DNA from: Candidatus Eiseniibacteriota bacterium | GTDB taxonomy: Bacteria > Eisenbacteria > RBG-16-71-46 > CAIMUX01 > VGJL01 | NCBI GenBank assembly: GCA_963792585.1 | Contig: CAWBWI010000001.1 | Location: forward strand, 96,001-160,000 | Direction of reading: 5' to 3' | DNA length: 64,000 nt | Shown: piece by piece, positions 3,028 through 61,991 of the stretch | How the letters are laid out: each line of letters begins with the position of its first letter | Position numbering within the stretch: the stretch's first letter is position 1 | The notes under the pieces: generated by a model | Databases searched by the model: none | What the model was told of the DNA's origin: nothing | The model's input: only the letters and a program-made list of their open reading frames with translations | Position numbers and translations under genes: made by a program

Positions 3028-6000
3028 CTACCGGATCACGAGCATCCTCCGCTTCGAGGTCGTCTGGCCGCCCTCCCCGGAGGTGGTCATGCGACAGAAG
3101 TAGATTCCGCTCGGCAGTTCGCCGGTGTCGAACTCGACCTGATGCCGGCCTGGGAGGTAGCTCGTCTTGTCGATGAGCATGGCGACCTCCCGTCCGGAGA
3201 CGTCGTAGACCTGCAGAGTGACCTGCGTGGCCTTCGGCAACTCGAACTGCATGGTGGTGTGCGACTGGAAGGGATTCGGGACGACACGGAGCACCGCCTC
3301 CCCTTCCGCAATGAGGTCGAGCGGCCCTGTCGCGTCAGCAACGCCGACGCCGCCCGTCGTCACCTGGAACCCCTCGCCGCCGTCGGGGACGGTGGAGGTG
3401 CTGGTGAACTGGGTGAGGTAGACATTGAACGTACGGTGCTCCGGGAACTGATTCGGGTCGTTCATCTCCCATCGCGTTGCGAGCGTCCCGGTCTGCAAGG
3501 ACCCCATCGGAATGCCTGCGATCACTGCGTTCGGGCCGGTCACGAGCATGGTTGAGTCGGGCAGGAGCTCGAAGCCGCTCCCTTGGTGGCCCGCGCCATA
3601 CCAGCGATTGAAGAGACCCTGCTCCATGGTGATCCAGAGCCTTCCATAGTTGAAGTAGGAGTCGGCCAGCTCCTCTTGGGGAACGGTCACGACCAGCTTC
3701 AACTGCGCGGCGTTCGCCTGGACGTTCTGGATGTTCAGGACCTGCTGGATGTTGGCTGACTTGTTGAGGACGTTGTCCACGAGCGTCAGGTTCTTGAGAG
3801 CGATGTTGTTGCTGTTCGCGACGTTGCCCCCGACGGACACATTCTGCTGCTCTCCATTCACCGGATCCTGAGCGGACTCGAACCGGGCGAGCAGACAGAA
3901 GTGGGGATCGCCGTTGAAAATGTTGTTGTTGAAATCGGGCATGTCGGTCCAATGACGCTCCACGGACCAGACCGCTCCGGGCAGAAGATTCGTGATCTGG
4001 ATCGGTTGGGTTCCCGTCCCCCCGACGATGTTGCCGGAGGTTCCATTCGTGAAGCTCGATGGCCAGATGAGACCGGTCGACGACTGTGCCCAGTAGAGCT
4101 GAACGGTCCCGGTCAGCGGGACGCTGCCGTCGTTGCGGATCTTCGTATAGACCCAAGGCCGGTTCGCCGGGATCACGGCGTACTCCGGGTTCTCGTGCAC
4201 GTGTTCCTTGAGGAAACGATCCGGAGAGGTGTTGAACTGCGTGTCCCGCGTGTTCTGCACCCATATGTCGGGGCTGAGATACAAGATGGGGCACGACGCG
4301 TCAGGTTCCACGCCGGTATCGGCCAGGCAGTCCCGGATGTAACCATCCGTCCCATTCACCCGCACCCCGCCGTCGACCATGTACGACTCCCAGAGCGCCC
4401 GGCCGTGGGTGGCCGCCCGGATCTTGTTGGTCGTGTAGTTCGGCTCGATGTCCACGACGATCGCATCCGGCATCTGGTTCTTGAAGGGCTGCCATTGGGA
4501 CATCGATGCGTCGCGATAGTAGACGCCGACATCGGTTCCGATGTAGAGACCATCATTGCTGCCCATCTCGTAGGAGATGCAGTTGACGGGCATGTTCGGG
4601 AGGTTGTCCGTGTAGTCCGCCCATCCCGCGGTGGGCGAGTAGCTCATCACCTTGTAGATGGTCTGGCCCGCGTTTGCCCACAAACCTCTGAAGGAGGCCC
4701 AGATTCTGTTGGGGTCTTTCGGATCGCTTGCGATTCCACTGATTTCCTGCCAATCCGCCCCCACGGGTTGGGTGGACAGAGGCTGCCAGTTGAGCCCGCC
4801 GTCGTTGCTCCTGAAGACCTTCTGATACCTGTTGGGATCGTTCTGTGGTGGATAGACGGCGCAGCATTCGGAGAAGTGCACAACGTCCGGATCGCTGAAG
4901 TTGATGTCGATCGCCTGAATCGATTGGTCGAGGGCCGCGTCATTCGAACCCCCGCTTCCGGCCGTCCAGTTCGATCCTTTGTTTGAGCTTCGCCAGATCT
5001 TGTGCAGGCCCGTCCAGATAGTGCTGGAGTTGACCGGGTGCATGGCGAGAGGAGGCGGGGCGTTCGCGAATGCCGCAGTGCCGGCGGGGCTGATGTATTG
5101 CCAGTTGTACCCATCGTCCTGGGTCCTGGAAGGCAAGCACGTAATGGAGCCGTACATCGTGGTGGGGTTCGTAGGATCGATCATCCCGCGACCCCCGTCG
5201 CCGTAGGAAGTGTCGACCCACGTCCCGGAGTCGTAGATCATCGTCGAGAGATCCTGCAGTCCCCCGACGAGCTTGTCGTGAGCGGGCCCCTCTGCGCCGC
5301 CGAATCCATAGAACTCAGAGATGTTCAGCCCGTAGCCGTTCAGGTCGAGCCACGTCGCTCCGGCGTTCGTGGACTTGGAGATGCCTCCATCATGGACGGC
5401 GAAGACAATGTCGCTTGCCCCTCCAAAGACCTGAAGCGCGCGGACATCCGCGTGGACGTACGTCGGGTCCACCGGGGCGTAACCATGGGTGATCGCGCTC
5501 CAGCTGACGCCGCCATCGACGGACTTGTACATGATGTAGTTGCCGGCGTACATGACGCTGGAGCTGGCAGGCGAAACGGCAAATCCACCCCAGCTGGCGG
5601 GCGCGGAGTTGCTGACCTGGGTCCACCCCGTCAGACCGGGGGAGGATGCGCGGAGAATGTAGTTCGTCCCCGATTTCGCCGAGACGGCCGCCCAGATCGT
5701 GTTCGGATCGTTCGAGCGGAAGCCGAGCAGGATGCCGGCGACGTCCGTGGCCGCGATCGGCGGCGAGGTCGGAAGTACGAGGTTCGGCGTCAAGTTCGTC
5801 CAGTTCGTGTCGTTGGTGGGTGTTGTTGCGGTCCAGGTGTACCAGAGCTGATTTCCGGAGACGTACACGTGGTCCTTACCGCCGGCCCCCGGCTTCGAGT
5901 AGACGCCGTGAAAGTCCGCGCCGGGAACGGTGAATACGGGGGTCGGGTTGGGGCTGGACGTCTTGGTGAAGGTCGTCCCACCATCCGTGGTCTGGTAGAT

Positions 6001-7356
6001 CTTCGAGGCGGAGACGGCGTACATGAGGTTCACGTTGTTCGGGTCGGGGAGCAGGAGCTTGCGAACGAACTCGGGCCACCCGGTCCCAGGCGTGTAGGAG
6101 AGACCTGTCTGGTTCCAGGTCAATCCGTCGTCGGGGGAGACGATCAGCCCGTACGCGTACTCCACGTAGCGGATGTTGATCGTTGCAAGGAACAGCCTGC
6201 CATCGGGGGTCTTCAGAATATCGCCAATACCGAAGTTGGACGGGTAGTTGCCATCGCGTGGGGCCCAGTGCGCGCCGCCGTCCGTGGTCTTCCAGAGGCC
6301 GCCGGAGCCGCTCCCGACGTAGAGGGTCTGCAGCCCGGGATCTCCCCAGAACGAGAAGAGGGCCCCCTTGCCCGTGATGTACCCCCCTCGGATCCCGGGA
6401 TTGGTGAACGGACCCAGTTCCTGCCAGCTTGCCTGGACCTGTGAGACGGGCGGCCTCTGTTCCGGCGAGTGGATGTAATCGTAGAGGGCGCTGTTCGCCG
6501 CATGAAGGGAACCCGAGGCGTCCATTCGCGGCCGCCAGAAGGCGGCATAGTTGGCGTACCCCATCCAGAGGTCTTCGCTGCCGACCAAGCTGTCATTCTG
6601 CGCGAAGAATTCGTCGGCGAGGGCCATCGTTGTTTGGGCGTTCGCGTGGTTGTCGCGCATCATCTCGCGCCAGTCCGCTGTCGGAGTCGGGGCCGCTTCG
6701 AAGACCATGCTGGCGTCGTAGTTCGATCCCAGCACGATGTGGGCCGGGGTCCACTCGGGATAACCGAGGTACGCGCTCTTGAAGACGCTCTCACACCCCT
6801 GCACGGACGCGGCCGCCAGCCAACCCCACTGGGGCGGAAAGGGGTGATCGTTCGCCTGGACGGAGAACCAGATGCGTGTGTTGGCCGGCACGTCCCAGCG
6901 AACGTCCGCGTGGTACTCGTACAGGGGCGTGGTGCCCTGTTGATAGACGAAGGTCTCATTCGCCGGGAACGGAATGCTGTATTGCGCGATGGCGGATGTC
7001 GGCAGACAGCTGGCGTCGTTGTAGAAGCGGACGGTGAAGCTGGAGATATGGGGGAATCCCGGCTGGGTGTTGAAGTATCCTCCCCACCACTGCACCCGGG
7101 TGAGCGTGACCATGGAGCCGGTCTGTCCCGACAAGACAAAGTCGTTCGCTACCTGCGACTCGAACCCTCCCGAGCTGATCACCTCGGAACTCGCGACGAT
7201 TCCGTTCAGATTGGGTGGCTGGGACCACACCGCGTCCCTCGTGCCGGCCAGCGGGTTGGATGACCCCTCGCCGCCGGCGCCCTTCATGTAGTCCGCTGCG
7301 AACGCAGGGGGCGCCACGCAAGCAATCAGGACAAGCAGGGAAATCGCGTAACTCAT
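3028..7356 (-). CDS. Large secreted BNR/Asp-box (VPS10/sialidase-like propeller) protein with T9SS-type C-terminal domain
   Basis: Signal peptide; many S/T-x-D-G-G-x-x-W boxes (KTTDGGAHW, KSVDGGVSW, RSNDGGLNW); LYIGTDVGVY..AATHGRALW; C-terminus VVPNPF..VYDVSGREVAML..LPSGIYFCRM..RRMLVIR. Confidence 0.85.
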   Translation of the reverse strand: MSYAISLLVLIACVAPPAFAADYMKGAGGEGSSNPLAGTRDAVWSQPPNLNGIVASSEVISSGGFESQVANDFVLSGQTGSMVTLTRVQWWGGYFNTQPGFPHISSFTVRFYNDASCLPTSAIAQYSIPFPANETFVYQQGTTPLYEYHADVRWDVPANTRIWFSVQANDHPFPPQWGWLAAASVQGCESVFKSAYLGYPEWTPAHIVLGSNYDASMVFEAAPTPTADWREMMRDNHANAQTTMALADEFFAQNDSLVGSEDLWMGYANYAAFWRPRMDASGSLHAANSALYDYIHSPEQRPPVSQVQASWQELGPFTNPGIRGGYITGKGALFSFWGDPGLQTLYVGSGSGGLWKTTDGGAHWAPRDGNYPSNFGIGDILKTPDGRLFLATINIRYVEYAYGLIVSPDDGLTWNQTGLSYTPGTGWPEFVRKLLLPDPNNVNLMYAVSASKIYQTTDGGTTFTKTSSPNPTPVFTVPGADFHGVYSKPGAGGKDHVYVSGNQLWYTWTATTPTNDTNWTNLTPNLVLPTSPPIAATDVAGILLGFRSNDPNTIWAAVSAKSGTNYILRASSPGLTGWTQVSNSAPASWGGFAVSPASSSVMYAGNYIMYKSVDGGVSWSAITHGYAPVDPTYVHADVRALQVFGGASDIVFAVHDGGISKSTNAGATWLDLNGYGLNISEFYGFGGAEGPAHDKLVGGLQDLSTMIYDSGTWVDTSYGDGGRGMIDPTNPTTMYGSITCLPSRTQDDGYNWQYISPAGTAAFANAPPPLAMHPVNSSTIWTGLHKIWRSSNKGSNWTAGSGGSNDAALDQSIQAIDINFSDPDVVHFSECCAVYPPQNDPNRYQKVFRSNDGGLNWQPLSTQPVGADWQEISGIASDPKDPNRIWASFRGLWANAGQTIYKVMSYSPTAGWADYTDNLPNMPVNCISYEMGSNDGLYIGTDVGVYYRDASMSQWQPFKNQMPDAIVVDIEPNYTTNKIRAATHGRALWESYMVDGGVRVNGTDGYIRDCLADTGVEPDASCPILYLSPDIWVQNTRDTQFNTSPDRFLKEHVHENPEYAVIPANRPWVYTKIRNDGSVPLTGTVQLYWAQSSTGLIWPSSFTNGTSGNIVGGTGTQPIQITNLLPGAVWSVERHWTDMPDFNNNIFNGDPHFCLLARFESAQDPVNGEQQNVSVGGNVANSNNIALKNLTLVDNVLNKSANIQQVLNIQNVQANAAQLKLVVTVPQEELADSYFNYGRLWITMEQGLFNRWYGAGHQGSGFELLPDSTMLVTGPNAVIAGIPMGSLQTGTLATRWEMNDPNQFPEHRTFNVYLTQFTSTSTVPDGGEGFQVTTGGVGVADATGPLDLIAEGEAVLRVVPNPFQSHTTMQFELPKATQVTLQVYDVSGREVAMLIDKTSYLPGRHQVEFDTGELPSGIYFCRMTTSGEGGQTTSKRRMLVIR

Positions 7357-7824: not shown

Positions 7825-9351
7825 TCACCGGAAGGCCGCCTTGACCCGGCCCCATGTGGTGCGCTCCACGGGCGTCGACGCGCACGGGTATGGATCGCAG
7901 GGCACACCGTCTCCCTGGTACTCCCCATCAAGATCATCACACTCCTCTGGCGTCGTGATCTCGCAGGATCGAGTGCCGTAGATGCAACAGGCTCCCAAGT
8001 GGGGATGCGTGCAGTCTTCTGTCTGGCAATCCGTACCAGACCCCATCGGATGCCCGCCGTGCGCGAGGCATTCCTCCGGCGTCAGGTAGTCACAGCTCCC
8101 GTCAGGGAAGCAGCACGCCTGCGGTGGCTGCGGGCAAGGGTTCGGGTCACAATCCGTGCCGTATCCCTGGGGTTCGCCGTTGAGCTGATCACAGACCGCT
8201 GCGGTTTCGAAGCGGCAGTCTCCATTGTCCAAGCAGCAAGCCATCGACGGCTGTGGGCAGGGGCTCGGGTCGCAGAGGACGAACATTCCATGGAAGATGC
8301 CCCCCTGCTCGAGGCAATGAGACCATTGCTCATAGATGCACGACCCATCCGGGAAGCAGCAGGCGCCATCCACGCCCATACACGGATTCGGCTCGCACGG
8401 CATGTCCATTCCCTGCCAGAAACCTCCCTGCTGCCGGCACTCATCGGCTGTCACGGCGACGCAGCGACCGTCGCCAAGGCAGCATGCGCCCAGAGGTTGT
8501 GGACAGGTATCGTGGGGATAGCAAGGGACGAAGTCTCCCTGGTAATCCCCGCCATCTTCAGCGCACTCAATGCAGTTGAGAGCCCGGCAGCGCCCATCGT
8601 GGAAGCAGCAGGCGCCCACCACCTCCACGCAGGGATTCGGGTCGCACGGGACTCCGAGGGTGAAGATGCCTCCCAAGTCGGTGCATTCCGTCTCCGGCCA
8701 AGTGATCTGGCACCGTCCATCACAGAGGCAGCAAGCACCGAAGGGGTCCATATAGATCGGGCATTGATTCGTGCCTGTCCCGTCCCAGCGCACGACCCCG
8801 AAGTTCGTGCAAAGGTCCTCTTGCGCTGGGCCGGCGTCGTCGACGAACTTGGCTTCGTTCGTGCTCGGATACGTGCGCGTGCCGAAATAGGTTCCTGGTC
8901 CCTCGATGTAGAAGACAAAGTAGTAGAAGCGGAATACATGTTCATAGACCGGTGCGCCAAGGGCGATCACGTTGCCGAATCCCCACTCTGGCCAGCCCTC
9001 ATCTCGGAGTTCGATGGGGTACGGCCCGCACGGGCCGAAGGTTTGAAAGGATTCTTGACCCGCCGGGATGTTGTGGTCGATCCCGAACTGGATCGCCGTC
9101 ACGGCAGGCGACATCTCCGGACGGAACGCGGCAAGCAGCCAGATCAACTGCGGGAACTCGAGCCCCTGTGTCCCGTTCGGGTCGAGCTCTTCGCATACGG
9201 TCGGGACCCCGGGAAGCTCGCAGTAGAAGGCCGGGGTGTAGATGACCGTGTTGTCAGCATGGACGACCATCGCGCCGTTCCAGTTACGCCCCGCATAGGC
9301 GGGGCCGCTGAGCAGCGCCAGAGTCAGGAATGCTCCGGTAAGATGCCTCAC
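7825..9351 (-). CDS. Secreted Cys-rich repeat protein with C-terminal TWG tail
   Basis: GTG start after AAAGGAG; signal peptide; seven ~41-aa GACC-x2-DG-x-C repeats; ends STPVERTTWGRVKAAFR. Confidence 0.85.
   Translation of the reverse strand: MRHLTGAFLTLALLSGPAYAGRNWNGAMVVHADNTVIYTPAFYCELPGVPTVCEELDPNGTQGLEFPQLIWLLAAFRPEMSPAVTAIQFGIDHNIPAGQESFQTFGPCGPYPIELRDEGWPEWGFGNVIALGAPVYEHVFRFYYFVFYIEGPGTYFGTRTYPSTNEAKFVDDAGPAQEDLCTNFGVVRWDGTGTNQCPIYMDPFGACCLCDGRCQITWPETECTDLGGIFTLGVPCDPNPCVEVVGACCFHDGRCRALNCIECAEDGGDYQGDFVPCYPHDTCPQPLGACCLGDGRCVAVTADECRQQGGFWQGMDMPCEPNPCMGVDGACCFPDGSCIYEQWSHCLEQGGIFHGMFVLCDPSPCPQPSMACCLDNGDCRFETAAVCDQLNGEPQGYGTDCDPNPCPQPPQACCFPDGSCDYLTPEECLAHGGHPMGSGTDCQTEDCTHPHLGACCIYGTRSCEITTPEECDDLDGEYQGDGVPCDPYPCASTPVERTTWGRVKAAFR
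7880..8745 (-). repeat. Seven coding repeats of ~41 aa, six conserved Cys each
   Basis: Units begin FGACCLCDGRC, VGACCFHDGRC, LGACCLGDGRC, DGACCFPDGSC, SMACCLDNGDC, PQACCFPDGSC, LGACCIYGTRSC; most end CDPNPC-like. Confidence 0.9.
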
Positions 9352-10029
9352 GGCCGTCGGCTCCTTTCCGGTCGGCTGATGAATCTCTCAGCGGCGGCGA
9401 ACAATCCCTCGCGAGGTCGAGACCCAGGCGTACGCGGATCCACCGCTATTTGGACGGCACGATTCTATCACCGTTCCATGCCCGTGGTTGACGAAAAATC
9501 CATCTGGGCGACCTCGTGTCCGCACTCGCCACCGGACCACCAGCTCTCGCGGGAGCCATGCTGCGCCCGGGTGTTCCGGAAGGCGAGTGAGCGTGGGGGA
9601 GTTGCGGCGAGCCGGGTATCCTTCGTGACCTCCCGTCGGCGAAGCTGCCGGAATGGATCTATGCCACGAGCCGGCGCGGACTTCCCGGTCGAAACGATCG
9701 CTGGTCTCGACCGAGAGTTGGATTTCACGCACCGCGCCTGCGCCTCTTCAGTTCTCCATCGATGGGTGGATCGTGGGCGCCGGGGCATGGTGGACGATAT
9801 GGATCCGTGCCGGGGGACTGCTGAAAGGCTCGGCCGATACCGCTGGAAAGCCGAGATTGGATTCCTGTTGCCAGGCCCAGCCGCCTCCTCGCGGCGAACC
9901 AAGCCCCATCCCCTGTCGATCTTACTTCTGCCAAGCAGCGAGGAGCCACCCTCTCGCTTGACTCTCGGTGGTATTGACGAGGAAGGTCGATGCTTCGACG
10001 GCGGATCCTGCTGTCGTACGAGGACAATC

Positions 10030-10062
10030 ATCGGGGGCGTCCCGTGTGGTGGCGCCCCCGAT
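10030..10062 (-). terminator. Terminator-like hairpin
   Basis: ATCGGGGGCG...CGCCCCCGAT inverted repeat ~27 bp after the stop at 10089; weak U-tract. Confidence 0.5.
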
Positions 10063-10088
10063 TCGTGCGCGGGGGATGCGGCCGGGTC

Positions 10089-10883
10089 CTACCGGAATGT
10101 CATCTTGACCCGACCCCAGGTGGTGTTCTTTGTCGGCGTGGGCACATCGTGCTTCACGGACGGGACCGCGAGGTACTCGTCGGGAACCTGGAGGAAGCTC
10201 GAGGCCCAGTTGGTGAATTGGTCTTTCAGGAAGTAGGTCGGCGCCTGCCAGTTCGGGACCTCCAGCCGGTAGAGGACCAGGTGTGTGCTGTCCACCGGCG
10301 CATACTCCACCCCCTGATGGCGCTTCCAGCATGGATTGCAAAGGTACGTGGCGGACGAGACGAGCTGGCCCTGCTCGTGGAACTGATCCCGCAGCCGGAC
10401 GTCTACGCCAGGCGAGGGGCCGACGACCCTGTAACACAGAAAGTGATTAATGTCGGTCGGGGGAGGTGGAGATTCAGGGTTCTGCGTCTTGCGCGCGGGG
10501 AGCAGCAGGAAGTCGAGGTACTCGACCTCGAGGGGCTGGCCGCTCCCGAATTGATTGTCGACAAGCACGCTGCGCGTGAACGGTTCGTCGGGCAAGTCCC
10601 ACCAGGTCATGTGCGCGGTCGAATCGCGCGGCGGGAACTCCTGACCCATATGGTACTTCCAGGCCGGGTTAAGAAGGCGTTCGAGCCGCGTCGTTACGAG
10701 CGGCCTATACTCCGTGTAGAACTGGTCCCTTGCTTCGAACGTGATCGGTTGGTCGAGTGGACCCGTCAAGTGGTAAGTCCAGTAGTGCGTCGGATCGATC
10801 TGCGCAGGTGCCTGAGACGGCACCAGGAGTGAAACAAACAGTACCGCAGCCCACGCAAGCCACGGCGTAGCGTTCTGCTTCAT
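10089..10883 (-). CDS. Secreted four-repeat protein (H-x-x-x-Y/W...DQF...P-x-x-K) with C-terminal TWG tail
   Basis: ATG 10883 after GGAGGAA; signal peptide ending APA-Q; ends PTPTKNTTWGRVKMTFR. Confidence 0.8.
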   Translation of the reverse strand: MKQNATPWLAWAAVLFVSLLVPSQAPAQIDPTHYWTYHLTGPLDQPITFEARDQFYTEYRPLVTTRLERLLNPAWKYHMGQEFPPRDSTAHMTWWDLPDEPFTRSVLVDNQFGSGQPLEVEYLDFLLLPARKTQNPESPPPPTDINHFLCYRVVGPSPGVDVRLRDQFHEQGQLVSSATYLCNPCWKRHQGVEYAPVDSTHLVLYRLEVPNWQAPTYFLKDQFTNWASSFLQVPDEYLAVPSVKHDVPTPTKNTTWGRVKMTFR

Positions 10884-11373
10884 GGGTACTTTCCTCCAAT
10901 CGCGGACCTTCCTCACCATCTAAAATCCACCAGGATTCAGTTCGGCGGCGTGCGGTTTCCCGCCTCGATGTGGCCTCTCCGCGCGGGCACGATCATCTCG
11001 GCCGGCACGATCTGTCAGGGGAGCTGGTGGGACCTACGGACGGCCTCCCCCTTCCGTGATGGAAGATGATAGGACGCGGTCGAAGAGACGTCAAGGGAAT
11101 CGCGTTGATGAATCGCGTTGATGCGCAAGTTGCTCGGCTTCAGTGAGTCGAAAAGAGATGAACCGAGGCTGCCGATATGCGCGCATGCTGCTCGGTTTAA
11201 TCCGATGTTGAGGCTCAGTCCTCTTGACGTGTCGTGCACTAATCCGCGAATTATACGACGTGGTGGACTCGGCAACGGGACGTGAGCGGTGATCACCATC
11301 TACAGCCACCGCGCCAGTCCTCGACTCGGCAAGTCATGGTGAAGCGCCCGCCCTCGTCAACAGGATCCGCAAG

Positions 11374-11778
11374 GTGGGATCCGTCCCGGGTACGACGAGA
11401 ATGCGATTCAATGGCCGAGGCCGGATCTACACGGAGTGCCGGGGGCAGATTCTTCATACGTGGTTCTGCCCATGTGTCTTCGCCTTGGATCGGGATCATC
11501 GGCTCGAGCAACTGCGCCAATCTCTGTATCAAATGGGGACGCGATGCACCGTCAAGCGGGCGTTTCCCCTGGCCGTCTCGCAGACGGATTCCACGACGAT
11601 CACCGTGCTGCAGCCGGGCGATAGGGTCGTGATCCTCGCCACGGATGACGAGTCCTGGTGCCTCGTCGAGACCGAGGACGCCATCTGGGGTTGGTTCAAG
11701 ATCCTCGACTACGACTCGGTTCTTCCCCTACGCATCCGCGCAAGTGAGGTCTTTGAGGGTCTCTCGGGGGCCGACTAG
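11374..11778 (+). pseudogene. Probable 5'-truncated gene ending in an SH3-like domain
   Basis: VLQPGDRVVILATDDESWCLVETEDAIWGWF resembles bacterial SH3; no RBS or signal peptide; in-frame TGA at 11290. Confidence 0.4.
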
Positions 11779-11970
11779 ATGGCGTGGCTTCGCGCCGGTG
11801 GGTCCGTGGGTTTCGATAATTGCGGAACCGGCCGAGCATGGGCGATGTACATCTGGGCGCGGAAGTGCAGCAGCCATGACTTCCTGAGACTGTGTTGAAT
11901 GGTGGTACACTTGCCTCCGGGGTAACGACAGACCCACGCATACGATCGCAAGCCCCGGACGGGAGGCTCC

Positions 11971-14900
11971 ATGCCGCGGAGATTCCTGCTCGATCATTGT
12001 CGGCGAACGCCTCGCGCGGCCGGCGCTTCAGTCGCTCCCATCTCACTCGCCGCTTTTCTGATCCTCCTATCGCTCTGGGCGTACGCTTCCCCAGCCAGTC
12101 CAGCCCCCGGCTGGTCGCCCGACTTCGCGCCGCCGGGCCCCGGCGGCGCCGTCCAAACTAGCATCTCTTACCAGGGCGACCTGATTGTCGGGGGGAACTT
12201 CGCATCGATGGGCGCGCTGCCGGCCCGCAACATCGCCCGCTGGGACGGCTCGACATGGCACGCATTCGGAGCAGGCGCGAACAATCGCGTCACCGCCTCG
12301 ATCATCTACAACGGGGACCTAATCGTGGCCGGCAACTTCACGTCGATCGACGGGGTTGCGGCGAACCGGATCGCGCGGTGGGACGGGTCCACCTGGTCGC
12401 CGCTGGCGGGCGGAATCGAGGGCGGCGTCACCAGCCTCGCTGTCTACGAGGGCGAGTTGTATGCCGCCGGCGACTTCCGTCACGCGGACGGGATCCAGGT
12501 CGAGAGCATCGCCCGCTGGAACGGCACGGCGTGGGCTTCGACCGGCTTCGAGCACTCGCCGTACTACTGGCATGCCGCGTTCAGCCAGCTGATCGTCCAC
12601 GCCGGAGCGCTGTTGGGGGCCTGGAGCATCGTGCCGGGAGTGGGCGAAGTGATCGAATGGGCGAGCTATCTTGCCAGCTGGGACGGACAGACGTGGACCA
12701 ACGGGTGGCCCGGTATCCTTCCGAGACCTACCTCGCTCATGCCGACCTCACTGGTCGTCCACGGCGGAGACCTGTACGCATCGGGTCTGTGGTCCGACGG
12801 ACTCGACGAGGCCTTTCACGTCGCCCGCCTGGTGAACGGCGAGTGGGAGCGAATCGGCGCTGAGTTCCCTGATCAGGACATGCTGTTGACCAGCTACCAA
12901 GGTCGGTTGCTCGTGGCGCAGGGGTCCTCCGGCGGACGGGGCCGCTCGTTCGTCTCCGAGTGGACCGGATCGGAGTGGAGGCGGCTCGCCACGGGTCCGC
13001 TTGGTCCGGTCGGCACATTCGGTCAGCATGATGGCGAGCTGATCGCAGGCGGCACGTTCGGCTTTGCGGACGGTCCGCCTGTCCGCGGTCTCGCGGGATG
13101 GAACGCCGAGCGCTGGCGCTCCTTCGGCGAGTTCCCGGGAATGGGGTGCGACGGCAATGTTCAAGCGATCGGCGCTGCCCCGGATCCCGACCACGTGGTC
13201 ATCGCCGGAGCCTTCCAATTCGCCGGCCATGTGCCGGCGGAGCAGGGCGCGATTCTCGACGACGCCGGATGGCAGGCTCTGCCCGCCTCGCAGCCCTACA
13301 CCGGTCTCTCTCGCTCCACGACGCGGATCGCGTTTCTTGGTTCCGACATCTTCGCGAACGGCAGCACCGAGTGGTGCGGCAACCACACCTGCTACGACGT
13401 CGACCGATTCCGCGATGGCGATTGGGAGCATCTGGCGCAGTTCAATGACGTGACCTTCGCGCTTCACGCTGCGGGCGGTCGGCTGTATGTCGGCGGCTCG
13501 TACTACCGCGTCGGCAACATGCCGGCCTCCAAGATCGCGGCGTGGGACGGCCACACCTGGTCATCTCTTGCGACGAGCCTGCACGGCTCGGTCCTCGACA
13601 TCACCTCCTTCAACGGCCAGATCGTCGCGGGGGGCGCATTCGACGGCACGGAGGACGGATCGACGGCGGCGCCGCGCGTGGCGCTGTGGGACGGAGCGCG
13701 CTGGAGCGGCCTCGGCGATGGCCCGGGCTATGTCGTGAACGCGGTCGTGGAACATGCGGGCGGGTTGGTCGTTGCGGGCAGCACCTCGAGGGTGGGCGAG
13801 CCGACGGTCTACCACGTCTCCCGTTGGGATGGGCACGCCTGGTCTCCGTTGGGGGACGCGCCCGACAAGTCGATCGACCGATTGGCGGTCTACCGTGGCC
13901 GCCTCATCGCGAGCGGAAGGTTCACGCACTTTGGGGTCGCGGAGGCGTCCTACCTCGCGGAGTGGAACGGTCTGGTTTGGATTCCATTCGGTGGAGGGAT
14001 CTCCGGCCGTGTGAACGGTCTCGCCGCGCGCGGGGATGACTTCTACGTCGTTGGTCAGTTCGATATGGCGGGTCAAACGCCGTCGTGGCACATCGCGCGA
14101 TGGTCGGAGACGCTCGCCGCGCCAACGGAGTTCGTCGTGGCCCCCGCCGAGAGCACCGCGACCCTCACATGGACCCTGCCCGAGGACCCCGACGTCGTCG
14201 GCCTCGTCGTGCGTTACGCGGAGGGCGACTATCCGACCGGCATCACGGCCGGCGAGGCGCTCCCCGGCGGATCTGCCGACGGTTTCTTCCCGGGCGAGCC
14301 GGGCAGCCGGTTCCAGATCGTGCATCCACAGTCCGCCGACGGCGGGACGACCTGCTATGCCGCCTACGCGATCACGGCTGACGGCTACCTTTCGACGCCG
14401 CTCTATGCGAGCTTCCACCGTGCAGACCTGACTCCGCCGAGGTTGGACGTGATGACCACGCGGGCGCCGTCGATCGGCGATTCGATCGAGGTCGCGTTGA
14501 CCTCATCGGAGCGGCTCGACTCCTCGGGCACGGCGATTCGCATGGACGGGCGAAGCCTGCCCCTGCGAACCGACGACGCGTCGGGGATGCGCTGGCGCGT
14601 GCGCATGCCGGTTCCGGAGTCGGGTGCGTCGCTGCAGCTCGATGTCTGCGGCACCGATCCCGCGGGAAACGCAACGTGCCGGACGATTCACCTCTCCGGC
14701 AAGCGGATTTTCTTCCTGGAAGGGGGGAGCCTCGTCAGTCCCGATGGGAGGCTCACGCTGGATGTGCAACCGTCGGGAGGCGGCACCGATCGGGTGATCA
14801 GCATCGTCTGGGATCCGGCCGATCCGGCCGGTGAACATGTCTACCGCATCGGCCCGGACGGGGCATCGGTCTCACGGGCACTTCTGCAATATCGCTACAC

Positions 14901-15354
14901 CGATGAGGAACTCGACGGGGCGGATCCCCGTCAAATGGTGCTCAGGCTCTTCCCACCGGATGCAACTCCCTCGTACGTCGATCCGGATCAACGGGTGGTA
15001 CGCGCATGGATCAATCGGCTAGGCGTCTGCCGTGCCGGGTTGACCGCGCATCAAGCGAGTCAGTTCCTCGACCCGGAATTCCTGCGGCTCGAGCCGCCGC
15101 GCCCCAATCCGATGTTGATGGTGGGGCAGTTCGCGTTCGAGCTTCGGGATCGCGTCGATGCCGAGGTCGCGATCTTCGATGTGACGGGTCGGCGCGTTGC
15201 GCAGCCATTCCGCGGGGTGGCAGGTCCCGGGCGGCAGGTGGTCACGTGGAACGGAAGATCGGACGATGGCCCCGACGCGCCGAGCGGGATCTTCTTCGTT
15301 CGCGTCTCGACGCCGGGCGCGCAGGCGGTCGAGCGGATCATCCGGGTGCGGTGA
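11971..15354 (+). CDS. Secreted beta-propeller (IARWDG..W repeats) protein with FN3/Ig-like domains and FlgD-Ig/T9SS-type C-terminal domain
   Basis: GGAGG RBS; signal peptide; repeated LIVGGNF..NIARWDGSTW; C-terminus PRPNP..IFDVTGRRV..VTWNGRSDDG..PSGIFFVRV. Confidence 0.85.
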   Translation: MPRRFLLDHCRRTPRAAGASVAPISLAAFLILLSLWAYASPASPAPGWSPDFAPPGPGGAVQTSISYQGDLIVGGNFASMGALPARNIARWDGSTWHAFGAGANNRVTASIIYNGDLIVAGNFTSIDGVAANRIARWDGSTWSPLAGGIEGGVTSLAVYEGELYAAGDFRHADGIQVESIARWNGTAWASTGFEHSPYYWHAAFSQLIVHAGALLGAWSIVPGVGEVIEWASYLASWDGQTWTNGWPGILPRPTSLMPTSLVVHGGDLYASGLWSDGLDEAFHVARLVNGEWERIGAEFPDQDMLLTSYQGRLLVAQGSSGGRGRSFVSEWTGSEWRRLATGPLGPVGTFGQHDGELIAGGTFGFADGPPVRGLAGWNAERWRSFGEFPGMGCDGNVQAIGAAPDPDHVVIAGAFQFAGHVPAEQGAILDDAGWQALPASQPYTGLSRSTTRIAFLGSDIFANGSTEWCGNHTCYDVDRFRDGDWEHLAQFNDVTFALHAAGGRLYVGGSYYRVGNMPASKIAAWDGHTWSSLATSLHGSVLDITSFNGQIVAGGAFDGTEDGSTAAPRVALWDGARWSGLGDGPGYVVNAVVEHAGGLVVAGSTSRVGEPTVYHVSRWDGHAWSPLGDAPDKSIDRLAVYRGRLIASGRFTHFGVAEASYLAEWNGLVWIPFGGGISGRVNGLAARGDDFYVVGQFDMAGQTPSWHIARWSETLAAPTEFVVAPAESTATLTWTLPEDPDVVGLVVRYAEGDYPTGITAGEALPGGSADGFFPGEPGSRFQIVHPQSADGGTTCYAAYAITADGYLSTPLYASFHRADLTPPRLDVMTTRAPSIGDSIEVALTSSERLDSSGTAIRMDGRSLPLRTDDASGMRWRVRMPVPESGASLQLDVCGTDPAGNATCRTIHLSGKRIFFLEGGSLVSPDGRLTLDVQPSGGGTDRVISIVWDPADPAGEHVYRIGPDGASVSRALLQYRYTDEELDGADPRQMVLRLFPPDATPSYVDPDQRVVRAWINRLGVCRAGLTAHQASQFLDPEFLRLEPPRPNPMLMVGQFAFELRDRVDAEVAIFDVTGRRVAQPFRGVAGPGRQVVTWNGRSDDGPDAPSGIFFVRVSTPGAQAVERIIRVR

Positions 15355-15373
15355 GCGGGTAGGGGCGAGTCGG

Positions 15374-16984
15374 ATGTTCCCTCGCGGAGGGCGGGTCACC
15401 GGTCTTGCCGCTGCGGTCGCCTGTCTGGTCCTGCTGGGATCTTGTGGCGACGACAAGACCACGCATCCGGACGATGGCGACGGGACCCCCGCCGATACCA
15501 CCGGGCGCATCTTCGGTCACGTCACGGGTGGATTCGGTCCGCTCGCGGCCAGGGTCGAAGCATTGAATCCCAACACGTCTCAAAGATTCACCACGGAGAC
15601 CGATTCTTCAGGTTCCTACCAGCTCGATCTCCTGCGCGCGAACTACGAGCTCTTCGTCATCTTGCCGGACGGCCGGCGGACCCAGTGGATGCCGGACGGA
15701 CCCAACGACGCGGGCATCGGTGCACAGATCCGGATGACTTGGGAGTATCAGGACATCCAGGTGGATCCGATGTTCGGGGCCATCCACTTCCGGATTCCCA
15801 TGACGGAACAATGCGATGGATCGCCGTTCCGGATCGAGTATCGCCATCACTACGAATGGGGCTTCAACATGCCCCTTCGCCTGAACGCATACCCGCAGGG
15901 GGGATTCCTCGACGTGGTCGCGGACGGGCTCCTCCCCGGCAAGTACCAGATCGACGTCACGACTCACGGTCAGCGGTTCTTCATTCCCTACGAGCCGGCA
16001 GGGTACGGACGCTACATCCTCGTCGAACCGCAGAGCCTTGCAGGATGGGTCCATGAGGATCTTCCTCTGCCGGCGCGGATCGTCGGTCGGCTCACAGGGC
16101 CTTGGGCGGAGGTCCTTCAGGCGCTCGACATTGGGAGGCAACCCTATGTCAGCGCCCACCAGGGGCGGTGGCCGAGCTTCCGTCAGGCGGGCGTGGCCCG
16201 TGTCGGGACCGACGGACGATTCTGCCTCGATACGATGTTTCCCGACTCCATCATGCTGCGCGTGAGCGGCGAGCGGTCCGGAAGCCACTGGGTTGGTAGC
16301 TCTGAGTTGGAACGTGGAACGGTCTTCTTGCCCAGACCTGGCGAAATCCTGGATGTCGGCGACCTGCCGGGGGCGGCCCTTCTCGTCCACTTCGCGCGCG
16401 AGGACAGCCAAGCTCTCGGCAGCGTCTCTCTCGGACTTTACGGGGAGGGCGAGCGCCACGTCACCGGCGCGAGCAACGCCGACTCGATCGTGCACCCACC
16501 GGCGGGGCGGGTCGGCCTATGCCACATCCAGCCGGGGAGATATTTCCTGCGCGCGGACAGAGACTGGATCCCCGGCGACGATGCCCCCGATTGGCCGCAG
16601 CAGTGGTATCCGGGCGTCGCCGACTTCGCACACGCCGAGCCGATCGACATCACCTCCCTGGACCACATGACCGAAGTCCACTGGATTCTGAAAGTGGGGG
16701 GAACTATCCGCGGACGACTCGATCCGTCCCCGGGAAGCCCAGAGAAGAGCGCCAGGATCTACGTCGAATCGGTCGCCGAGCAGCGTTATGTTGACTCGCA
16801 GACGGTGACGACGGCGGATCCCGACTTCCTCCGCTCAGGACTGACGGACGGCTCCTATCGCGTGGTCGCAAAAGTGAGTGAGCGTCGCTACTGGTATCCC
16901 GGCACCTACAATCGTGACGAAGCGACGGTCCTCGTCATCGAGGGGCAGAACGTCATCGAGATCGGTCCTTGGCCCTGGCCGTGA
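15374..16984 (+). CDS. Lipoprotein with carboxypeptidase-regulatory-like domains
   Basis: Lipobox LLGS-C; TGRIFGHVTG..TETDSSGSYQL; repeated W(Y/M)P(G/D) motifs; GLTDGSYRV. The ORF-track start (15197) overlaps the previous gene. Confidence 0.7.
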   Translation: MFPRGGRVTGLAAAVACLVLLGSCGDDKTTHPDDGDGTPADTTGRIFGHVTGGFGPLAARVEALNPNTSQRFTTETDSSGSYQLDLLRANYELFVILPDGRRTQWMPDGPNDAGIGAQIRMTWEYQDIQVDPMFGAIHFRIPMTEQCDGSPFRIEYRHHYEWGFNMPLRLNAYPQGGFLDVVADGLLPGKYQIDVTTHGQRFFIPYEPAGYGRYILVEPQSLAGWVHEDLPLPARIVGRLTGPWAEVLQALDIGRQPYVSAHQGRWPSFRQAGVARVGTDGRFCLDTMFPDSIMLRVSGERSGSHWVGSSELERGTVFLPRPGEILDVGDLPGAALLVHFAREDSQALGSVSLGLYGEGERHVTGASNADSIVHPPAGRVGLCHIQPGRYFLRADRDWIPGDDAPDWPQQWYPGVADFAHAEPIDITSLDHMTEVHWILKVGGTIRGRLDPSPGSPEKSARIYVESVAEQRYVDSQTVTTADPDFLRSGLTDGSYRVVAKVSERRYWYPGTYNRDEATVLVIEGQNVIEIGPWPWP

Positions 16985-17101
16985 TCGTAGCCTTGATCGT
17001 GATCCCAGGCTGAGCGCAGGCATGCTGACGTTTCGCGTTCGTGCTGATTCACAGGTCACGATCTTGGAAGTAAGGGGCCGACGCCGGTCGCGTCCGTCGA
17101 A

Positions 17102-17131
17102 CAACCGGCGGCCGCACAAGCCCGCCGGTTG
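17102..17131. terminator. Hairpin between convergent genes
   Basis: CAACCGGCGG...CCGCCGGTTG perfect 10-bp stem between the stops at 16984 (+) and 17156 (-). Confidence 0.5.
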
Positions 17132-17155
17132 CCTCGACGTCAACCTATCCGCCGA

Positions 17156-17515
17156 TCATGCTGCTTCGGGATGGTACTGAGCGCTCCCGAATCCAAGGAT
17201 CGGCCAGAAGATGAAGGACAGCAGCAGGAGCCCGATCGCGAAGCCGATGTCGTATCCGAACTTCCTGGAGAGGCGCACGTAGATGATGACCGCGACGATC
17301 ACGTTGACCAGTGGGACGAACATCAGCAGCACCCACCAGAGCGGCTTGCCGACGATCTCGAGCAACACGATGACGTTGTAGATCGGGACGATGGCGGCCC
17401 ACCCCGGTTTGCCAGCCTTCACGTACACCTTCCAGCACGATGCGATCATTAGCACGAGGAATGCTAAGTAGAGGATAGACACGATCGGATTGGCGAACCA
17501 TCCCTTGTCGAACAC
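17156..17515 (-). CDS. DUF5684-like membrane protein
   Basis: WKVYVKAGKPGWAAIVPIYN..KFG..GFAIGL..ILGFGSAQY signature; GTG 17515 after a purine-rich RBS. Confidence 0.8.
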   Translation of the reverse strand: MFDKGWFANPIVSILYLAFLVLMIASCWKVYVKAGKPGWAAIVPIYNVIVLLEIVGKPLWWVLLMFVPLVNVIVAVIIYVRLSRKFGYDIGFAIGLLLLSFIFWPILGFGSAQYHPEAA

Positions 17516-18231
17516 ATCTCCCCCCTTGCCGGCGCGAGAGGCGTCATCGGCCCTCGCGACCCTGCTTGACGGGTCCAAACTCCCCATGACCGTGCGGAGA
17601 TCTTCTCCGCATCCCGACGGAGGCGCTTGAATTCACGCGCTCCATGAAGCCGAACTCGAACTCCACACCGAGGTTGAGGCGTGCGGACTCCGGTCTGGTG
17701 CGGGGCATGATGCTGCGGGCTGTACTCTCTTCCAGCGATGGAAGTCCGTGCCACGTCTGCGCGTAACTCAATCGCAGGCAAGGTACGAGCGCATTTGGGG
17801 GGTGTCAAGGAAGAAGCGGGGGGGCTGCCCCGGCCGGTCCGTCGAGGTCGGTGGCGGGGCGCCCAACCTGGTGCGGGCGGCAATCCGGCGCCGACCTTGC
17901 GCCAACCCCGTGCCGACGACGGCGACGACTTTGACGGTGATCTCGTGTCGGCGGTTGGGACGCTTTCGAGGGCGATCTCGTGCCAGCAATGGCGGCCATT
18001 CATATGTGGCCTCTTGTCGACGACGGGGGCGACTCGCTGGCGACCACGGTGGGGCGACGGTGGCGACCCCGCCGATCTCGACCTAGCATGCGAACCCGGC
18101 GAATCCCTATGGCGCCAGGTCGTCGTTGGTGCTAAAATCAGCCCGCGGTACGGAGAATCATAGTCTGCAATTCCAAGCCTGCTCACGCCGACTGCCTCCG
18201 TGCATGCCACTTTTGCCAAGGGGGTCCCTTG

Positions 18232-18924
18232 ATGAGACTTTTGCGATCGCTTGTCATCATCCTGGCGGTCGGTTTCGCAATGGCTCCGGCCGTCGCCCTC
18301 GCCGACTGGACCGACAACTTCGATTCGTACGTGACCGGCACTGGCCTTCATGGTCAGGGTGGTTGGCACGGATGGGACGGCAGTTCTGGTGCCGACGCCA
18401 TTGTGACCGATTTCGTGGCGTTGAGTTCACCCAACTCCGTCAACGTCTCTGGTCCGTCTGACATCGTGCACGAGTACGGCGAGACGGCCGGGCTGTGGGT
18501 CTTCACTGCGTGGCAGTACATCCCCTCCGACTTTTCGGGGCAGAGCTACTTACTGCTGCTGAACACCTACAACGACTTCGGTCCGTACAACTGGTCCTGC
18601 CAGGTCTCTTTCAACAGCGTCGGCAATGTTGTCACCTCCGATCCCGAAGGCGCGACGTTGCCGATGATCACCGGGCAGTGGGTGGAGATCCGCGTCGAGA
18701 TCGATCTCGATGTGAACATGCAGACCTTCTACTACGGTGGCCAGCTGCTCTATCAGAAGAGCTGGACCGAGGGCATGTCCGGTGGGGGAGCCGACTACTT
18801 CGGAGCGGTCGACCTGTTCGCGAATGCCGCAAGCGCGATCTACTACGATGACCTCTCTCTGATGCCGCCGGCCACGCCGACACGCACCACGACCTGGGGT
18901 CAGGTGAAGGGGTTGTTCCGGTAG
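18232..18924 (+). CDS. Secreted single-domain (ConA/LamG-like beta-sandwich) protein with C-terminal TWG tail
   Basis: Signal peptide ending ALA-D; DNFDSY..GQGGW; GQWVEIRVEIDLD; IYYDDLSL; ends ATPTRTTTWGQVKGLFR. Confidence 0.85.
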   Translation: MRLLRSLVIILAVGFAMAPAVALADWTDNFDSYVTGTGLHGQGGWHGWDGSSGADAIVTDFVALSSPNSVNVSGPSDIVHEYGETAGLWVFTAWQYIPSDFSGQSYLLLLNTYNDFGPYNWSCQVSFNSVGNVVTSDPEGATLPMITGQWVEIRVEIDLDVNMQTFYYGGQLLYQKSWTEGMSGGGADYFGAVDLFANAASAIYYDDLSLMPPATPTRTTTWGQVKGLFR

Positions 18925-18987: not shown

Positions 18988-19295
18988 GACGTTCTTACGG
19001 AGTGGCCAGTACTCACGGCAGAGCGGGGATGCTCGAGTCGAGCTTCTCGATCGGTCCGCCTGCACACACCTCGATCCGGTGCCTGCTCGTGCTCGACTTG
19101 GCGGATGCTTTGGCGGGCCGTGGCGGTTTGGCGAGCGGGGGAGCTTCGGCTGGAGGGGAGCATGCGCTCGGCAGGTGGGACGCCGAGAGCAGGTGTGGTG
19201 CTCCATCATCGCAGTGACTCCGGTATTCGCCGGCACACGACTGCGCTTTCTTGATGCGCCCCGCGAATTTTCTGTCGGGTGATGGAACTTTTCCC

Positions 19296-19325
19296 TTGCG
19301 CGACCGTACATTTGTATGGTATTCA
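19296..19325 (+). promoter_or_regulatory. Putative sigma-70 promoter with an operator-like dyad in the spacer
   Basis: TTGCGC (19296), 18 bp, TATTCA (19320) with extended TG; dyad TACA-TT-TGTA at 19307-19316. Confidence 0.4.
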
Positions 19326-19334
19326 TCAGAACCC

Positions 19335-46759: not shown

Positions 46760-46769
46760 CAGGGGTTCC

Positions 46770-46816
46770 TCCGGAGCCGGTCCCGGTTCGCGGCGGATCG
46801 GGGCCGGTTCTCCGGA
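46770..46816. terminator. GC-rich hairpin after the corrected stop at 46759
   Basis: TCCGGAGCCGGTCCCGGT...ATCGGGGCCGGTTCTCCGGA imperfect inverted repeat; its position supports 46759 as the true end. Confidence 0.45.
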
Positions 46817-46921
46817 TCCGGCGCCGCGTTCCTTGACTCCCGCACCGCATCCCGACAGAATCACCTCCACGGTCCATGCCGACTGCCGGGGGATGGCGCG
46901 CATCGCCATTGGAGGTAGTCC

Positions 46922-54982: not shown

Positions 54983-55738
54983 ATGAACGACTGCTGCCAG
55001 CACGCTGCGAACGCGGGGATCGGCTCCCTCAGTCTGGCTCTGCTCTTCACGACCGGTCTGTTGATGAGCCTTGGCCACTGCATCGGGATGTGCGGCCCGA
55101 TCGTCGGCGCCTTCAGCGTCGGACAGAAGGCGCGGGGCGCCACCCCCCGGGCGCTCGTTCTCGCAACGGGTCTTTATCAGGGCGGACGAGTGATGAGCTA
55201 CGTCCTGATCGGCGGCTTCTTCGGCCTGCTCGGCTCCGGGGCCGCGCGCCTCGGTGACACCGGGCTGCTCAAGGGTCTGGTTTCGATCCTGGCCGCCGGG
55301 CTGATGCTCATCCTCGGCATCGGGCTGCTCGGGATCCTGCCGTCGCAACATTGGCTGGACCGTCTTCCCTTCGCGCGACGGGCCTCCCAGGCGGTTGCGC
55401 GATTCTTGAGGACACCCAAGCCGATCGGGCAAATCGGCCTCGGCCTCGCCAACGGCTTCTTGCCCTGCGGGCCGGTTGCGGCCTCCGCGCTCACGGCGGC
55501 CGCCGCAGCGAGCGTGCCGCGCGGCATGCTTGCCATGCTCGTTTACGGTTTGGGGACCGTGCCGGTCCTGTTCGCTCTAAGCCTCGGGATGGGAGCCCTC
55601 GGACGGGCGGTGCGGCTGCGCTTCTACAGGATGGGTGCAGTCCTCGTCCTCCTGATCGGCGTCCAGCTCGGCCTCCGCGGCTTCCATGGGCTCGGCTGGA
55701 TCGAAGGCGTGCGGATCGGCGAGATGGTTCTCTGGTAG
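54983..55738 (+). CDS. DsbD_2 / TauE-SafE-like membrane protein associated with cco clusters
   Basis: HCIGMCGP, YQGGR..SY, NGFLPCG, YGLGT.P. Confidence 0.88.
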   Translation: MNDCCQHAANAGIGSLSLALLFTTGLLMSLGHCIGMCGPIVGAFSVGQKARGATPRALVLATGLYQGGRVMSYVLIGGFFGLLGSGAARLGDTGLLKGLVSILAAGLMLILGIGLLGILPSQHWLDRLPFARRASQAVARFLRTPKPIGQIGLGLANGFLPCGPVAASALTAAAAASVPRGMLAMLVYGLGTVPVLFALSLGMGALGRAVRLRFYRMGAVLVLLIGVQLGLRGFHGLGWIEGVRIGEMVLW

Positions 55739-55871
55739 CGAGGCTTGGAGTTGGGCCCGCGTCTTCCTCACATGTCGTCGCGCAGCCCGAGCAACCTCCA
55801 GCCCTCCTTATACGAGACCTCAGGATTAATTGGGACCGTCGGGCGCCTTCATCCCTTTTAATGCTCTGAGG

Positions 55872-58391: not shown

Positions 58392-58561
58392 TCATCCTCG
58401 TGTTCGTGAGCTTGGTCCTCGTTGCGGCCGCGATCCTCTTTCTGTTCTCACGGGTCCACGGTGGAGACCTGGACCATGGGGACAGATTGTCCCTCATGCC
58501 GTTGGATGACGATGCGAACCCGAGCCACAAGCAGAAGGAAGGAGAAACGGTTCCTCGATGA
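58379..58561 (+). CDS. ccoS: cbb3 oxidase maturation protein
   Basis: GTG after GGAGG; TM followed by GDLDH..PLDDD; overlaps both neighbours. Confidence 0.8.
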   Translation: MDVLIILVFVSLVLVAAAILFLFSRVHGGDLDHGDRLSLMPLDDDANPSHKQKEGETVPR

Positions 58562-61029: not shown

Positions 61030-61032
61030 GCC

Positions 61033-61940: not shown

Positions 61941-61991
61941 CGAACCGGATTCGGGCGGCAGACCCGCGCGATCGGGAATCAGAGGTTCCGC

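Follow-up and report, generated by a model that had tools for sequence, protein, structure and literature searches.

A short C-terminal TWG tail on secreted proteins of Eisenbacteria and other phyla: a probable sorting signal that may belong to the type IX secretion pathway

In Candidatus Eiseniibacteriota bacterium, three genes with unrelated bodies end in variants of one peptide of about 17 residues, which raises the question whether this peptide is a sorting signal and which cellular system would read it. The genes are located in a stretch of 64,000 nucleotides (contig CAWBWI010000001.1, positions 96,001 to 160,000, assembly GCA_963792585.1), called the window in the following; the peptide is called the TWG tail after its core residues. 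An initial annotation had proposed a tag for a dedicated export or processing machine or, alternatively, a minimal signal resembling type IX secretion system (T9SS) signals. We find that the tail is a real C-terminal module without a catalogue entry. That it behaves as a sorting signal is well supported, and its connection to T9SS is likely, by way of domain swaps and co-occurrence.

The tails terminate at 7825 (-), 10089 (-) and 18924 (+), as had been annotated, and a six-frame search of the window returned no further match of the motif. In a BLASTP comparison, the three bodies did not match each other at E<=1e-5, which agrees with their description as unrelated and rules out the three proteins as homologues. 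Only one of them, the 264-aa protein, carries a Pfam domain (DUF7450). Signal peptides had been attributed to all three; two pass the crude hydrophobicity rule by which signal peptides were called in this study, while the protein ending at 7825 narrowly fails it and has a signal peptide as judged by eye.

The source genome assembly (5.4 Mb, 7 contigs, 84% complete) contains 116 open reading frames (ORFs) which end in PxxxTWGx[IV][KR]xx[YF]R, with three internal matches and none in a control of reversed ORFs. A wider pattern gave 121 C-terminal matches, from which five without an aromatic residue, H or N at position +8 were removed; measured from their called start, nine of the 116 remaining ORFs do not reach 100 aa and could be fragments. 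The genome consensus, [TV]-P-[TVI]-x-x-T-[TS]-W-G-x-[IVL]-[KR]-x-L-[YF]-R-stop, bears out the core of the initially given xTPxxxTTWG[RQ]VKxxFR. That version was too narrow, however, as the 116 tails have K (77) or R (39) at position +5 and mostly Y (70) or F (42) at position +8. The fixed distance to the stop is real: the stop follows 4 aa after the motif in 106 of the 121 regex matches, and the spacing to a stop is exactly 4 residues in 71 of 86 six-frame matches to [TS]WG.[VILMT]K. A single terminal Arg, in addition to the K/R at +5, is found in 107 of the 116 tails, and there is no run of basic residues. None of the 116 has a transmembrane (TM) segment in its last 40 aa, as had been claimed, and a TM anchor was thus ruled out. 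A proteome scan for signal peptides, which had been suggested as a check, showed that the tail is enriched on proteins which have them: the start resembles a signal peptide for 92 of 106 tail genes as opposed to 1002 of 3190 other genes; for genes with the C-terminal domain (CTD) of T9SS cargo the count is 192 of 266.

TWG genes represent 108 of the 3963 called genes, or about 3%. Their products have a median length of 238 aa, compared to 644 aa for CTD proteins. The 109 bodies of at least 60 aa form 36-37 similarity groups, the biggest of which holds 61-62 members. Pfam domains were found on 18 of 58 scanned bodies (beta-helix, CBM_4_9, LTD, F5/8, CHRD, PPC, FlgD_ig and, below cut-off, DUF7901). 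Three tandem TWG genes code for lipoproteins according to their lipobox (C2:291757-293914). Such tandem lipoprotein arrays with the tail, which have no family match, comprise three genes in the source genome, at least six in locus L038 and three in L055.

For the tail itself, no model exists in Pfam and NCBIfam, as searched with the three window proteins and 53 tails and, for NCBIfam, also with 15 proteins of other lineages. The CTD models TIGR04183, PF18962 and PF13860 matched none of the 53 tails and none of the three window proteins, and a PDB sequence search with a tail profile gave no match. In the ESM Atlas, tail proteins matched only clusters of "hypothetical protein". A description of the tail was not found among the matches listed in literature searches, which covered few subscription papers. 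Neither an equal frequency at internal positions or on cytoplasmic proteins, nor full-length homology of the window proteins, nor membership in a known family was encountered.

The tail is exchanged for other sorting signals on homologous bodies. The best 120 of 516 homologues of the 18232-18924 protein were assigned to tail classes by a rule of our own, with one Pfam label, PF07589. TWG tails occur in 74 of them and PEP-CTERM-like ends (TM segment plus Arg) in 32; two are IPTL-like, one has another TM-plus-Arg end, and 11 end otherwise. Most tails begin at one common junction. Three homologues (P0118, P0077, P0115) have other short ends, one without TM segment ending in YLPVIMK and two with hydrophobic ends led by PTAVTL; such ends are also known from Chloroflexota.

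An equivalent exchange is found within the source genome, where C1:754739-755503, which ends in TWG, lies in tandem with its PEP-CTERM paralogue C1:755439-756260 (36% identity over 135 aa). This pair heads an exopolysaccharide (EPS)/exosortase locus, which would suit a dedicated processing or export machine outside T9SS that reads the tail as exosortase reads PEP-CTERM, the link to T9SS then being due to shared ancestry. Also consistent with such a machine, of the seven attributes that have been listed for small sorting signals (10.1101/2023.06.07.544157), the tail shows five in full and a sixth in part. However, the tail offers no TM segment to an intramembrane protease, and the two exosortases of the genome already have 11 PEP-CTERM proteins as targets.

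Exchange with the CTD is also found within the source genome, where 61 of the 109 tail-less bodies match CTD proteins. In 21 swaps, one and the same last domain directly precedes the TWG tail in one protein and a CTD in a second one. A single Cys-rich repeat underlies 18 of these swaps, and three do not involve it. The last Cys-rich repeats of the 508-aa window protein likewise recur directly before the T9SS CTD in C1:1263354-1265279. In Chlorobia, a module with an Fn3-like fold ends in TWG at six loci and directly precedes a CTD at six others. The statement that no protein has both tail and CTD holds for the window but not beyond it: C3:1272738-1273193 (-) codes for a 150-aa protein with a signal peptide and a FlgD-like/CTD-like fold followed by a TWG tail, the only such protein in the genome, which could be an adaptor, and some Poribacteria proteins also carry both.

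The latter proteins point to another possible role, that of a docking tag. After Sec export, the tail helix would bind an envelope receptor inherited along with T9SS (the machine on its periplasmic side, a lipoprotein of the outer membrane, or a carrier with a CTD), and the proteins would be tethered or piggy-backed. The small size of TWG proteins and the presence of the tail on lipoproteins are in accordance with this, as is the genomic vicinity: a CTD gene is no more than two genes away for 39 of 108 TWG genes, compared to 708 of 3584 other genes. However, no receptor gene recurs beside 79 tail loci or beside the one-copy genes described below, and because the tail is exchanged with CTD and PEP-CTERM on the same bodies, a sorting role fits better. 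We therefore consider docking a somewhat unlikely explanation.

T9SS genes accompany the tail. The source genome codes for SprA_N, eight PorV-family proteins above cut-off, PorU above cut-off, and 278 C-terminal CTDs. Among 36 genomes, which had been chosen for holding a tail, 30 have at least 12 loose-pattern matches; all 30 contain 6-32 PorV-family matches, and 28 contain SprA_N. The SprA_N matches of four Poribacteria genomes (G121-G124) are below cut-off and lie in ORFs of 2,230-2,260 aa; the same genomes have 9-11 PorV-family genes. CTDs were found in Poribacteria too, as were PorU-like proteins below cut-off, with three PorU-like proteins of 1,650-2,260 aa in each of three genomes searched. 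In contrast, a 2014 paper reported CTDs of Poribacteria without Por structural genes (PMC3909097).

Chlorobia provide a case of joint loss. SprA has been described as specific for the Fibrobacteres-Chlorobi-Bacteroidetes (FCB) group and as missing from Chlorobiota (PMC12611786). Among 71 Chlorobia genomes, PorV was found in 10, six of which have the tail, and the tail is absent from all 61 PorV-negative ones. This co-loss is one evolutionary event. The four PorV-positive Chlorobia without tail are compatible with a dedicated machine outside T9SS, in contrast to the absence from all 61 PorV-less genomes and to the incorporation of the peptide into CTD leaders of Poribacteria, described below; taken with the points given above, we regard such a machine as distinctly improbable.

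A strict DNA pattern detected the tail in 119 of 121 genomes of the source phylum, with a single control match overall; the two genomes without strict matches still have PorV. Matches listed in a scan of our sequence collection include records from Eisenbacteria, Krumholzibacteriota, Latescibacterota, Poribacteria, Fibrobacteraceae and Gemmatimonadota, and 69 of 77 tail ORFs not cut by a locus end (two counted twice) have a signal-peptide-like start. Poribacteria carry the tail in 41 of 41 genomes, with 8-105 matches each compared to 0-19 control matches. Low counts in bins labelled Legionella, Polyangiaceae and Phycisphaera correspond to the control level. A sample of 81 Bacteroidota genomes showed no tail expansion, with at most two matches per genome. 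When 19 Bacteroidota loci were fetched, 11 turned out to be chance or internal matches and were dropped. As a separate case, one copy of a TWG-like C-terminal peptide occurs on a Bacteroidia protein with an N-terminal hydrophobic segment (L031:1946-2533, +). On IMG/VR contigs (L340-L346), TWG tails make up six of seven matches, with ORFs of 118-512 aa; these could be cargo of prophages, or the contigs could contain host DNA.

The eight remaining Bacteroidota loci represent one family with a signal peptide, a domain of about 95 aa that is Fn3-like according to Foldseek, and the tail. This Fn3-TWG protein has 130-150 aa (e.g. L151:5402-5788, +; also L150-L157, L053, L260-L271 and L328-L333) and was found in Ignavibacteria, Melioribacteraceae, Rosettibacter firmus, Balneolales, KSB1, Calditrichota and Chloroherpetonaceae. 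In the KSB1-type phylum (that of genome G151), 50 of 61 genomes contain exactly one tail, with one control match, and 11 of 12 loci read code for the Fn3-TWG protein. Among 120 homologues collected by whole-protein search, TWGSIK is invariant in all 120. NCBIfam holds no model for this protein, and no orthologue was found in the source genome. Its gene often adjoins Maf; sigma-factor or ABC genes are other neighbours. We take the invariance and the one-copy state as conservation of the type expected for a receptor-bound signal. The near-invariant one-copy protein also looks like a subunit with a fixed partner, as a docking tag would have it.

In Poribacteria, 47 tails follow [AP]V[EDS]PxxKLxTTW[GA]x[LIV]K and continue with 0-10 mostly polar residues. 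The same peptide is also found in series with a full CTD, as would again be expected for docking: at 26 places in 21 of 41 genomes it is located 6 residues before the N[YF]PNP of a CTD (control 0). All 16 loci read, from three body groups, have this arrangement, mostly after a linker of the [AS]VE/AVN/SVD type. TWG before CTD is nevertheless a minority arrangement. Because the tail occupies the place of a CTD leader here, it might be a functionless leader left behind after loss of the beta-sandwich. We consider such a vestige very improbable indeed, given that TWGSIK is invariant in all 120 Fn3-TWG proteins and the tail has been kept in one copy across a phylum, that 36-37 body groups have the tail at a fixed distance from the stop, and that only one of the 278 CTD proteins of the source genome has an upstream TWG match, a weak one.

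Structure predictions support the amphipathic helix after a linker that had been postulated. In the AlphaFold models of the Fn3-TWG protein and of the 18232-18924 window protein, the C-terminal part is a 7-residue helix which begins with the Trp. The predicted local distance difference test (pLDDT) of the linker is 62-64 and 68-74, respectively, compared to >90 over most of the bodies, which suggests that the helix hangs free. For source-genome tails, the mean hydrophobic moment is 0.55 at 100 degrees versus 0.36 at 170 degrees, with a net charge of +2.3; the moment is 0.64 for Fn3-TWG tails and 0.48 for Poribacteria tails.

C-terminal amphipathic helices which target proteins to the membrane are known from MinD, FtsA and PBP5. 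The tail resembles them in being short, basic and C-terminal, and such a helix might enter a lipid leaflet without any reader, replacing the TM anchor of PEP-CTERM. The hydrophobic moment, the charge and the modelled helix would agree with this, as does the swap with TM anchors on the same body. However, a lipid anchor could do without an invariant W-G and without a constant spacing to the stop, its loss together with PorV in Chlorobia is not expected, and the reuse on unrelated secreted proteins throughout a phylum distinguishes the tail from the helices named. Furthermore, the weakly hydrophobic Poribacteria tails retain only the W and the I/L/V; 13 of 47 stop before the aromatic position, and Tyr is found there in five. 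Their weaker helix and the lack of the aromatic position in these 13 speak for a protein that reads W-G-x-I-K and not for mere insertion into lipid, so that we rate direct membrane anchoring as rather improbable.

The tail is thus C-terminal and modular, is exchanged with CTD and PEP-CTERM, and co-occurs with T9SS genes. The explanation we prefer, and to which we give an even chance, is that it is a minimal helix-type address signal of the T9SS pathway, a swappable module of about 17 residues. Cargo would likely first be exported by Sec, as indicated by the predicted signal peptides. A T9SS component would likely then bind the predicted helix W-G-x-[IV]-[KR] at the free end; the best candidate is a shuttle of the PorV family at the SprA translocon. 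The small cargo would next pass through SprA across the outer membrane. Finally, the PorU sortase would probably cut in the linker of small residues and Val, and the cargo would be anchored or released. The linker of Poribacteria tails, with Val at position -9 in 40 of 47, resembles the PorU cleavage motif.

The literature supports this mechanism by analogy. The pocket in which PorV and SprA bind signals is plastic and for the most part hydrophobic (PMC10994853), and different signals can have specialised shuttles of their own (PMC12618676). CTDs can also be reduced in size: the shortest known T9SS CTDs, from Prevotella intermedia, have 43-55 aa, three strands and a PT/GI cleavage motif (PMC11969387).

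Several observations weigh against an address signal of T9SS. With about 17 aa and a predicted helix, the tail differs from the known T9SS signals, all of which are beta structures; CTDs cut by PorU span 67-88 aa (PMC11285876), and even the shortest CTDs have 43-55 aa (PMC11969387). Pro occupies the position of the usual small residue at the cleavage site in 87 of 116 source-genome tails. The tail stands in for PEP-CTERM, which is an inner-membrane sorting signal, and occurs on lipoproteins. From the proteins with both TWG and CTD one could conclude that the tail is not sufficient for export. Such proteins are a minority: among the 40 top-scoring Poribacteria CTDs that were fetched, none of the 39 readable ones has TWG upstream. 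As to the machinery, sprA of the source assembly is split into at least three ORFs (C4:15479-20297, -); frameshift errors seem likely, because several other genes are also fragmented. GldN (PF19841) had no match in the source genome, the control being blank too, the genome 84% complete and the other motor genes not searched. Neither a quick tree of 63 nor a FastTree of 103 PorV-family sequences, which took in part of each genome's paralogues, revealed a PorV subfamily that tracks the tail; the only PorV clade missing from three TWG-negative Chlorobia is a lineage-level expansion. A recurring partner gene is lacking beside the PorV paralogues of the source genome, as it is in the 79 tail loci and beside Fn3-TWG genes. 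T9SS presence does not imply the tail, which is absent from most of the Bacteroidota sample as well as from the four PorV-positive Chlorobia mentioned. Co-occurrence is also confounded by ancestry, with one independent loss. Finally, Acidobacteriota bin G140 has five tails without PorV or SprA. Its 14 family relatives have 0-2 pattern matches each, and the five loci read from them contained no C-terminal tail and were dropped as chance or internal matches; the one G140 tail locus read adjoins a CTD gene on a 4-kb contig. Contamination of the bin is therefore likely but unproven.

An evolutionary extension of the T9SS proposal is tentative and, in our opinion, possible rather than probable. The T9SS of the wider FCB group would read two kinds of signal, the second being ancient and consisting of a ten-residue helix at the free C-terminal end. 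This second signal would have been kept as the one Fn3-TWG protein from the KSB1-type phylum to Ignavibacteria, Balneolales and Chloroherpetonaceae and lost in PorV-less Chlorobia and most Bacteroidota. In Eisenbacteria, Krumholzibacteriota, Latescibacterota and Poribacteria it would have been expanded to the main route for small surface proteins, taking over cargo for which other phyla use PEP-CTERM.

Among known signals, the type A CTD of T9SS (TIGR04183, PF18962; PF13860-type in these phyla), which is read by PorV/SprA and cut by PorU, is similar in several respects. It is located at the extreme C-terminus of Sec-exported proteins, on many unrelated bodies per genome, without a TM segment; it has a conserved Lys/Arg near the end and a linker of Thr, Pro, small residues and Val, and it occurs on the same bodies and in the same genomes. 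As for type A cargo, TWG proteins mostly carry predicted Sec signal peptides and their genome codes for SprA, PorV and PorU. In contrast, the CTD consists of 43-90 aa in beta strands, while the tail is much shorter, predicted to be helical, and devoid of motifs B, D and E. The tail is also absent from most Bacteroidota searched, has much smaller cargo, and is found on lipoproteins as well. The type B CTD with its PorP/SprF-like shuttles shows that a further class of signal can have a shuttle to itself (PMC12618676), and TWG-rich genomes have at least six PorV-family paralogues. However, a type B CTD is a folded domain and its gene frequently adjoins that of its shuttle, whereas TWG genes as a rule are not beside PorV-family genes.

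PEP-CTERM and the other tripartite signals (IPTL-CTERM, MYXO-CTERM, GlyGly-CTERM, LPXTG) are likewise small C-terminal modules in many copies on signal-peptide proteins. PEP-CTERM-type signals share the junction on homologous bodies, the basic end, and a similar length after the body (20-22 versus 20-25 aa). Conserved residues are present in the tail too ([TS]-W-G and K/R); here they were part of the search pattern, but in the Fn3-TWG proteins, which were collected by whole-protein search, TWGSIK is invariant as well. The tail differs from these signals in having no hydrophobic TM segment. In place of an Arg cluster, or of the 2-5 clustered basic residues of tripartite signals, it has a single terminal Arg plus the K/R at +5, and no linked intramembrane protease was found, with no recurring neighbour in 79 tail loci. 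Because it has neither a TM segment nor a beta domain, it falls outside both the tripartite family as delimited in 10.1101/2023.06.07.544157 and the T9SS CTD family.

If the T9SS proposal is correct, the rule that T9SS cargo needs a folded beta-domain as signal would change. A location would be assigned to about 3% of the source-genome genes and to tens of proteins per genome in several uncultured phyla, including the sponge symbiont Poribacteria, and a very small secretion or display tag would become possible. If the tail is a docking tag instead, it marks an undescribed envelope receptor conserved across several phyla. The question concerns uncultured phyla, and it becomes testable because the Fn3-TWG protein occurs in cultured Rosettibacter firmus and because of the co-loss in Chlorobia.

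The features of the window are collected in Table 1, which includes neighbouring CTD genes as comparators.

Table 1. TWG proteins, their tails and comparator genes in the window.
Feature	Position	Strand	Characteristics
508-aa protein	7825..9351	-	signal-peptide-like start, N-terminal domain without assignment, Cys-rich repeats, TWG tail; no Pfam match
TWG tail STPVERTTWGRVKAAFR + stop	7825..7878	-	motif match
264-aa protein	10089..10883 (alternative start 10919 possible)	-	signal-peptide-like start, DUF7450 (PF24247, E 3e-19), TWG tail
TWG tail PTPTKNTTWGRVKMTFR + stop	10089..10142	-	motif match
230-aa protein	18232..18924	+	signal-peptide-like start, predicted beta-sandwich body, TWG tail
TWG tail ATPTRTTTWGQVKGLFR + stop	18871..18924	+	predicted helix at residues 222-228 after low-confidence linker
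1442-aa neighbour/comparator	3028..7356	-	T9SS type A CTD; N-terminal domain common to many TWG proteins of the genome
1127-aa propeller protein, neighbour/comparator	11971..15354	+	FlgD-like/T9SS-type CTD, TIGR04183 above cut-off
SBBP-repeat protein, neighbour/comparator	22218..24563	-	FlgD-like CTD

Three other regions of the window were noted. At 44199-46925 (+), a CTD-like domain is followed by about 100 unrelated residues, probably due to a frameshift inside the CTD. The 910-aa ORF at 19251-21983 (+) is of low complexity at its N-terminus and weakly matches HNH at its C-terminus (E 0.084); it may be a mobile or repeated element. The run of genes at 54983-63404 (+) looks, as judged by eye, like a cluster for a cbb3-type oxidase and its maturation.

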